Positions 39,647 through 40,177 of a stretch of 64,000 nt of DNA are shown here, one piece after another. Every line of letters starts with the position of its first letter. The first letter of the stretch is position 1. The notes under the pieces are model-generated. The model worked only from the letters and a program-made list of their open reading frames with translations. It did no database searches and was not told where the DNA came from. This stretch comes from Eledone cirrhosa (taxonomy: Eukaryota), in the NCBI GenBank assembly GCA_964016885.1, contig OZ024752.1:7564001-7628000 (forward strand), written 5' to 3'. The translations under genes were made by a program, and so were the position numbers.

Positions 39647-40177
39647 TTACGTATTTAAAGAGCCATTTTCAAGAGTTGTCCGTCTCCTACACCTTCTACC
39701 GGTCATCGTCTCTGATGGTTGCATTTGTGAGTTTGTTGTCTTCATAGTATTACGTTTCAGCGCGATTTTAGCTTCGGCCTCTTCAAATTTCCTGTTAGCT
39801 CTGGTTTGTGCCATGGCCCTAGCGTTCCGTATCCTCTCCTTCCTCCTGTATTCCTCGTTCTGTCTAAGTATGGACATAGAGATGGCATTCTCTTCTCGCT
39901 CTTTCCTCCTATATTCATCGTCCATTCTAGCCTGAGCTCTCGACATAGCATTCTTGGCCCTCTCTCTTAGCCTATATTCCTCGTTCATTCGGTTTCGTCT
40001 CTGGGCAGCAGCGTTTCTTTCCCTCTCTTTAGCTCGGTACTCAGGATCTTCCCTCATTCTTCTCATATTCTCAGCGGCGCGCATTTTCGCCAGTTCTTTG
40101 TTAGCAGACCTATGTCTGACCGACAGCTCGCTCGATCTAGCATGATCTTTGCGTGCTGTTGTTTTAATCCGCGGCAT
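39647..40177 (-). CDS. 176-aa basic protein with H3-tail-like N-terminus and four 21-aa EYR..ER..NA repeats (STPR-like, putative DNA-binding)
   Basis: aaaaacATG start; repeats diverged at DNA level but conserved in protein; exon bounded by acceptor ttctaacag (40279) and donor ATG|gtgagt (39642); upstream donor GAG|gtaagg (40418). Confidence 0.8.
   Translation of the reverse strand: MPRIKTTARKDHARSSELSVRHRSANKELAKMRAAENMRRMREDPEYRAKERERNAAAQRRNRMNEEYRLRERAKNAMSRAQARMDDEYRRKEREENAISMSILRQNEEYRRKERIRNARAMAQTRANRKFEEAEAKIALKRNTMKTTNSQMQPSETMTGRRCRRRTTLENGSLNT

Follow-up and report, generated by a model that had tools for sequence, protein, structure and literature searches.

The window analysed here is a stretch of 64,000 nucleotides from the genome of the octopod Eledone cirrhosa. 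Its minus strand carries an open reading frame, 40177→39647, that encodes a protein of 176 amino acids and ends in TAA. An in-frame stop lies 7 codons 5' of the ATG (the open frame as a whole is 39647-40198, 183 aa). The reading frame sits within a 985-bp island without tandem repeats (39600-40584; CpG observed/expected 0.92), the surrounding window being rich in microsatellites. The flanks of the gene consist of microsatellite and unique sequence. Table 1 is a collection of the features found.

Table 1. Features of the gene, its transcript and its protein, in window positions.
Feature	Position	Strand	Remarks
Conserved 5' block, promoter or 5' UTR	40293..40420	-	Two TGCGCA palindromes, 40370-40375 and 40401-40406; contains the 18-codon upstream ORF
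Exon 1, minimum extent	39642..40354	-	5' UTR, whole coding sequence and 5 nt past the stop; X8 contig
Coding sequence, 176 aa	39647..40177	-	All within exon 1; single copy
N-terminal 11 codons, H3-tail-like decapeptide	40145..40177	-	Also like MP[RK][LT][RK]K[QK]S, with which HLE2 RepHel proteins begin
Lead-in helix, possible degenerate repeat 0, residues 22-42	40052..40114	-	AlphaFold helix 8-43; aligns with relatives' repeat units
21-aa repeat 1, residues 43-63	39989..40051	-	Predicted helix 45-64
21-aa repeat 2, residues 64-84	39926..39988	-	Predicted helix 66-83
21-aa repeat 3, residues 85-105	39863..39925	-	Predicted helix 87-106
21-aa repeat 4, residues 106-126	39800..39862	-	Predicted helix 108-127
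Degenerate fifth unit, residues 127-147	39737..39799	-	Predicted helix 129-151
GT-AG intron, 11,483 nt, in 3' UTR	28159..39641	-	Donor ATG|GTGAGT; X8 spliced, X5 not
Exon 2, likely non-coding 3' UTR	27765..28158	-	X8 loose end; single copy; 3' end provisional

Evidence for a transcript can be found in public sequencing runs, four of which were aligned to positions 39600-40900. Run X8, a run of unrecorded kind, stems from the same organism as the DNA runs and from a different sample. One of its contigs (1107 nt, depth 88.7) follows the genome with 0 mismatches over 40354→39641 and then departs from it. The 30-nt loose end has one place in the window, 28128-28157, just past a pyrimidine tract and an AG. 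A contig from DNA run X5, in contrast, continues unspliced past the donor. Because the GT-AG joint is present in X8 and missing from X5, X8 is taken to be RNA. The 393-nt tail of the X8 contig would stop at 27765, inside a 48-bp tandem array. The gene is apparently transcribed and spliced. Under the 50-55-nt rule, a stop codon this near the last junction would escape nonsense-mediated decay.

Runs X1 and X2 come from one study of a second species, here called organism A, and are guessed to be RNA. An organism A contig runs from the 5' block through the coding sequence to the final 29 nt of exon 1 and stops at the donor used in X8. Another extends into the intron; the intron start is common to both species. 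The organism A contigs branch at the donor (39641), and the branch that enters the intron has about half the depth, which may reflect retention of the intron or another 3' end.

Only 2 letters differ in organism A over the last 29 nt of exon 1 (39669→39641, minus strand), which contain the final codons, the stop and an ATG right at the donor. The 80 nt that precede them are unalignable in organism A, which has 71 nt instead, with the frame kept. A bicistronic reading, in which the ATG at the end of the exon opens a second large protein, was considered and rejected for the one isoform seen, in which only 22 codons run across the junction (to 28093).

The 5' block differs from organism A at 28 of 128 nt, in a comparison where synonymous sites differ at 57-66%. 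An upstream ORF of 18 codons with a good start context is found here (40350→40294, minus strand). Its stop and the edge (40293) of the stretch shared with organism A are 1 nt apart, a hint that this may be a regulatory uORF under conservation.

The 851-bp region, the 176-aa protein and an independent repeat protein each have one place in the 3.0-Gb genome (these counts are lower bounds), and the exon 2 sequence is also single copy. The possibility, raised in the initial annotation, that the ORF is a fragment of a high-copy transposon is ruled out by this single copy at the level of both DNA and protein.

Among named relatives, only the O. vulgaris protein CAI9723314.1 is close, with 80% identity over 123 aa. 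Its gene model begins at a Met equivalent to residue 41 and is likely truncated at the N-terminus. Homologue searches with longer and shorter queries returned none further. No squid, bivalve or gastropod orthologue occurs among the named matches (names were sought for 20 of the 30 representative hits, and many have none). The ESM Atlas gave nothing usable for the whole protein; the repeats match clusters there at 0.82-0.87, which are leads only. A metagenome search with the single protein returned 305 stretches matching a pattern, 0 of them confirmed.

For the comparison with organism A, 40 of 74 differences are listed, namely those at 39785-40040. Among the indels listed, none falls inside 39750-40177. 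All those listed, with one further row beyond the listing, lie at 40181-40193, just 5' of the ATG, so that coding constraint evidently begins at this ATG. Third codon positions account for 32 of the 40 listed differences; 34 differences are synonymous and 6 are replacements. Over codons 46-131, this one species pair gives a dS of about 1.6, a dN of 0.030 and a dN/dS of 0.019 (Fisher p 3e-23). Over codons 46-143 the corresponding values are 1.08, 0.026 and 0.024. The coding sequence is under strong purifying selection. Four of the six replacements are common to organism A and O. vulgaris, and other positions differ between them; three distinct lineages thus carry the gene.

Of the 64 differences in the whole piece, 24 remain for codons 1-45 and 132-143 together with 42 nt of UTR. 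Synonymous change alone predicts 24.8, and a free N-terminus would add about 69 more. The first 45 residues thus appear constrained as a whole, without the H3-like motif being singled out. The initial annotation had proposed a lineage-specific protein and suggested dN/dS of residues 1-11 as a check. The ratio indicates purifying selection over codons 46-131, the leftover count points to overall conservation of codons 1-45, and, together with the single copy, the splicing and the presence in O. vulgaris and organism A, these values bear out a lineage-restricted, conserved and apparently transcribed gene. It is a single-copy, spliced, conserved octopod host gene.

In the protein, EYR recurs at residues 46, 67, 88 and 109, as first described. 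Self-identity of the whole protein at lag 21 is 0.27, a value reached at any lag by 0 of 5000 shuffles. Within the repeat region it is 0.43 at lag 21 versus 0.18 at lag 23. The 21-aa periodicity therefore far exceeds chance, and the period given in the initial annotation is correct. At the DNA level the repeats are 40-63% identical to one another. The protein has a pI of 11.3, with 49 K+R and 26 D+E (R 37, E 22, A 22). A Pfam search finds no family at E<=10, hence neither a histone fold, whose absence had already been noticed, nor STPR.

AlphaFold, given an alignment of 20 sequences, predicts the helices listed in Table 1, with a mean pLDDT of 87, about 98 over the repeats, and a pTM of 0.52. 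The prediction is a chain of charged helices, one per repeat, with a break at the D/N position of each unit. The C-terminal tail past residue 151 has a pLDDT of about 54 and differs in O. vulgaris and organism A.

Searches for known structures were less informative than the prediction itself. A PDB sequence search with the 176-aa protein gave one chance match (E 0.38). A PDB profile search returned polyQ huntingtin and RING-like cysteines, which come from the RepHel part of the profile, and no STPR. Foldseek with the predicted model found nothing at E<=0.001. The best VIA-align match has a Z of 5.8, and the matches are coiled coils or generic long helices only, with an rmsd of 20-40 A for most, which is uninformative.

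Relatives of the repeats can be found among transposases of the Helitron2/Helentron group, HLE2. When 1.84 billion representatives were searched with phmmer, 30 hits came up, orthologue included. DUF6570, Helitron_like_N, PIF1 or OTU is present in 13 of the 29 other hits (in P0003 the PIF1 match falls slightly short of the cut-off), and the cysteine motif that comes after the repeats in RepHel proteins is found in 3 others. The six best hits after the orthologue are all RepHel-type proteins, recognised by their domains or by the cysteine motif. DUF6570 is a marker of HLE2 according to the part of the HELIANO study consulted (PMC11417382).

The match in the RepHel hits is their N-terminal repeat array. 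The top lag is 21 in 28 of the 30 hits, with one tie and one hit at 22 (ranges chosen by hand). An MP[RK] start is seen in 9 of the 30, two of them at an internal Met. The Musca RepHel protein P0003 aligns from Met1 to residue 135 without gaps and with 28% identity, and Chrysoperla P0005 likewise aligns from Met1. The octopod gene and the HLE2 N-termini have in common the repeat consensus [QE]-D-x-x-Y-R-x-x-E-[RQ]-x-R-[ND]-x-x-A-x-x-x-x-R. Across 135 family units, D/N, Y/F, R/K, E and R are kept at fixed positions, of which Y/F, R/K and E served as the anchor for picking the units. Some caution is called for, since low-complexity repeats rich in R and E can converge.

The N-termini of HLE2 RepHel proteins (XP_058974718.1 from Musca, XP_044742323.1 from Chrysoperla and XP_065370889.1 from Calliphora) thus share with the octopod protein the 21-aa period, the consensus, the basic MP[RK] start and the alignment from Met1. 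Unlike them, the octopod protein consists of about 5 units without DUF6570, Rep, PIF1 or OTU, and its gene is single copy, has a spliceosomal intron and contains repeats that have diverged. Nor does the locus resemble an autonomous HLE2 element, as it has neither a RepHel core nor dispersed copies (the counts being lower bounds). When 10 relatives were compared with the 64-kb window by tblastn, only the ORF was matched among the matches listed, and no RepHel core (DUF6570, Rep, PIF1; nuclease, helicase). The initial annotation had also mentioned the N-terminus of a Helitron as a possible source of the ORF. This likeness is real, probably as a matter of origin; it does not extend to a mobile, high-copy fragment, the gene being single copy.

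DUF6570 is matched at 54 places in the genome, in many cases within a frame longer than 2000 aa. Fifteen of these 54 loci were inspected with 1.5-kb flanks, and they show repeats of 15 or 19 aa, none of which matches the protein as a donor element would. Repeat length at the HLE2 N-terminus differs between families. Loci L005 and L007-L017 comprise a young, near-identical HLE2 family with frames to about 2245 aa and basic 15-aa repeats, and another family with 19-aa repeats.

Stand-alone or host-like proteins with the 21-aa repeat occur elsewhere (P0009, P0012, P0015, P0021, P0023 and P0027). In P0021 the repeat is fused to C2H2 zinc fingers. P0015 and five members of its cluster are stand-alone proteins with an MPK start and four repeats, in which the repeats are conserved and the tail is variable. 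The P0015 cluster (6 members), P0021, P0012 and P0027 may be independent domestications, or they may represent an unrecognised DNA-binding family.

The initial annotation had compared the repeats with STPR domains. The STPR repeat is strictly 23 residues long, with Glu1, Thr/Ser2 and Arg9, and each unit consists of a 2-residue linker and a 21-residue helix that contacts 4 bp of the major groove via Arg, Tyr and small hydrophobic residues (PMC4856987). The DNA bound by STPR is AT-rich. STPR proteins (PF21107; silkworm FMBP-1, ZNF821) and the octopod protein are alike in having four tandem basic helical repeats, each with a linker and one helix (here by AlphaFold prediction). Both kinds of repeat are known in Helitrons and in host proteins, also beside C2H2 fingers. 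They differ in period (21 versus 23), in the signature, in the lack of a Pfam match and in their association, which is with HLE2 for the 21-aa repeat and with HLE1 for STPR in the part of the HELIANO study at hand (PMC11417382).

Octopod units begin with ED, MN, MD or QN followed by x-E-Y-R, without the E1-[TS]2...R9 signature of STPR, whereas true STPR units of the E. cirrhosa genome show E1, S/T2, R6, R9 and L10. PF21107 has 176 places in this genome, and the locus of the octopod gene is absent among the 150 listed. An hhalign comparison of 106 three-unit rows with 7 STPR rows (a small alignment) gives a probability of 0.04%, where 20 shuffles give 0.03-1.23. Membership in the STPR family is not borne out by period, Pfam or profile. 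The comparison with STPR by profile and by structure prediction, which had been recommended, thus agrees in the predicted helix per repeat with its short linker, and the profile probability falls within the range of the shuffles.

The 21-aa repeat looks like the HLE2 counterpart of STPR. By analogy with STPR, the 176-aa protein likely binds DNA; no DNA-binding work on the 21-aa repeat was found in the open-access literature. At two other loci of the genome, L025 (G000:C8:40278164) and L033 (G000:C4:286076511), short ORFs encode 4-5 canonical STPR units that no Helitron sequence continues in frame; they are candidates for STPR factors of the host. L033, too, has an H3-like basic start, which shows that such starts arise easily.

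Domesticated DNA-binding modules of transposases are a known source of animal transcription factors. The explanation favoured here, with moderate confidence, is that the octopod gene was domesticated from the N-terminal repeat module of an HLE2 transposase, and that its chain of helices probably lies along DNA as a small factor that reads sequence or shape. Domestication is favoured because the transposase starts outscore the host-like relatives, because the coding sequence is intronless, and because no orthologue from a non-octopod mollusc is found among the named matches.

The process may have taken the following course. The N-terminal module of a Helentron/Helitron2 transposase would have become an octopod host gene, capturing a host promoter and an intron in the 3' UTR, so near the stop that nonsense-mediated decay would be avoided. 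The basic helices, capped by D/N, would present their Y-R-x-x-E face to the major groove in the manner of STPR. The protein might then be a transcription factor of the host, or it might compete for Helentron ends by occupying them. Its H3-like start would be the basic start motif of the transposase plus a chance RK, likely used for nuclear import or DNA contact.

Parallels can be found in THAP, ZBED, CENPB, FLYWCH, HTH-Psq and FHY3, where one transposon module was kept as a host gene, as is proposed here (PMC10027918, in part). The part of that survey consulted describes domestication in cephalopods as common for cut-and-paste families, and the words 'helitron', 'rolling' and 'STPR' do not occur in it. 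Helentron-related VTD genes, unlike the N-terminal repeat of the octopod protein, carry protease domains (PMC9741609, in part). In the open-access literature, neither a report of the domestication of an HLE2 N-terminal repeat nor a description of the 21-aa repeat was found, and the repeat has no Pfam model.

The direction from transposon to host is only inferred, since the part of the HELIANO study consulted reads the extra domains of HLEs as captured from hosts (PMC11417382), and stand-alone repeat proteins exist elsewhere. The 21-aa repeat could belong to an old host family of DNA-binding proteins, small and uncatalogued, from which Helentrons captured the domain, with nothing domesticated. 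The MPK-starting four-repeat proteins of the P0015 cluster and the host-like fusion P0021 speak for such a family, HLEs are known to capture domains (PMC11417382, in part), and no donor element was seen in the 15 of 54 DUF6570 loci inspected. However, transposase N-termini outscore all host-like relatives save the octopus orthologue, the named matches include no squid, bivalve or gastropod orthologue, and an intronless coding sequence that aligns from Met1 with RepHel starts is more in keeping with a transposase. An old host family is an unlikely explanation.

The initial annotation had aligned the first residues of the protein with the tail of histone H3. With the H3 decapeptide as quoted there, and numbering after removal of Met, the N-terminus is identical at 6 of 10 positions in register (R2, K4, T6, A7, R8 and K9), so the alignment itself is sound. 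The chance of 6 or more identities in one protein is 1.6e-5 with the composition of all fetched proteins, 1.0e-4 with its own and 1.75e-4 with that of the family N-termini. A profile of the family N-termini gives 6.5e-5 to 6.7e-4, the upper figure with one deletion. A proteome assumed to hold 25,000 proteins would be expected to contain 0.4-4.4 chance matches. The match is unlikely for one protein, yet within genome-wide chance.

Qualitatively, R2, K4, T6 and A7 echo the HLE2 start motif. The 8 sequences of the profile were chosen for their MP[RK] start, so that its fit (9 of 5000 shuffles) is partly circular. The family start does not explain the match away, as it raises the chance only to about 7e-4. 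In register with H3, the 10 family N-termini compared each have at most 2 of 10 identities, and one reaches 4 with a shift of one residue.

The octopod N-terminus also has A-R-K as its core, preceded by T at -3 and K at -5 relative to the K9-like lysine. Readers of K4 want a free alanine N-terminus. According to PMC8303541, SUV39H1 prefers S, T, K or R at +1 and a small residue at +2, while SUV39H2 requires S or T in the first of these places and does not act when S10 is phosphorylated. The residues at -5 (K), -3 (T), -2 (A) and -1 (R) agree with the preference of SUV39H1. Those after the K9-like lysine, D at +1 and H at +2, lie outside the preferences of both enzymes. Phosphorylation at +1 blocks the binding of HP1 to known mimics (PMC9768651, in part), so that a K9 decoy with an acidic residue in this place would be a poor one. 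The H3K9-like mimics of G9a/GLP described in the same part of that paper share the T-A-R-K core with the octopod protein. They have a phosphorylatable T at +1 and proven methylation, whereas the octopod protein has D at +1.

The initial annotation had read this start as a K4/K9 decoy tail on a DNA-binding protein, with a phosphomimetic residue at position 10. It would then be a selected mimic whose K4-like and K9-like lysines are targets of methylation or of readers, D10 taking the place of phospho-S10. The low identity of the family N-termini would mean that the match was gained in the octopod lineage. Along with the identities in register from the mature N-terminus, the SUV39H1-like residues before the lysine (PMC8303541, in part) and the apparent conservation of residues 1-45, this speaks for selection. 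The constraint, however, spans all 45 residues, and the letters of codons 1-11 are unlisted in the organism A comparison. The O. vulgaris model, which starts further downstream, has no bearing on the motif. The match was picked post hoc from a proteome in which chance alone could supply it, and four of its six residues echo the HLE2 start. The predicted helix begins at residue 8 and covers the RK, and the residues at +1 and +2 ill suit SUV39 enzymes (PMC8303541, in part) and, in the case of the acidic one, HP1 (PMC9768651, in part). A selected mimic is accordingly improbable, and the H3-tail likeness is likely a coincidence.

The two readings can be combined: a domesticated Helentron helical array may later have evolved a true H3-tail mimic, binding Helentron ends or AT-rich repeats and recruiting or decoying the H3K4/K9 machinery, which would make it a chromatin targeter of transposon origin. 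This is a quite improbable scenario. If the mimic were functional, it would tie transposon domestication to chromatin control in cephalopods.

The protein, whether domesticated or born in the host, could also use its E/R-rich helices in another way, as an RNA-binding protein or as a rod (a single alpha-helix or coiled coil) that spaces other proteins. Its richness in R, E and A fits such a rod, and the only structural matches, with Z no higher than 5.8, are coiled coils and long helices. These matches are at background level, though, given their large rmsd. The predicted helix is interrupted at every repeat, and residues are kept at fixed positions of the unit, including those beyond the picking anchors. 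An RNA-binding or rod-like role is very doubtful. A remnant of a mobile Helitron without host function can be dismissed as highly improbable: the gene is homologous to RepHel N-termini, and active Helitron ORFs can also show purifying selection (dN/dS 0.15; PMC13085455, in part), but it is single copy, has no RepHel core in the window among the matches listed, is spliced to a unique exon 11.5 kb away, and shares its 5' block, frame and donor with a species at a dS of 1.1-1.6.

As a probable domesticated HLE2 module, the gene offers a small, testable handle on the function of the HLE2 N-terminus. It points to a second, STPR-like family of predicted helix-per-repeat DNA-binding proteins, which would include stand-alone and zinc-finger proteins elsewhere. 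It also corrects the likely truncated gene model of O. vulgaris.

Several other features are present in the window. LINE reverse-transcriptase ORFs lie at 17234-19501 (minus strand, 755 aa), in the flank on the intron side past exon 2, and at 43261-44259 (minus strand, 332 aa); in both, the RT domain is followed by an inserted PHD finger. A LINE-type reverse-transcriptase fragment is found at 62504-63505 (plus strand, 333 aa). Within the intron there is a unique, single-copy AT-rich island (39100-39335, plus strand) whose plus strand reads ttttacag, like an acceptor, at about 39190-39197. Positions 48663-48950 and 49855-50151 are local duplicates, each about 300 bp long, that lie on opposite strands and have near-identical translations. 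Upstream of the gene, the 50 bp at 40851-40900 are a dispersed repeat, of which the genome has at least 40 other copies.
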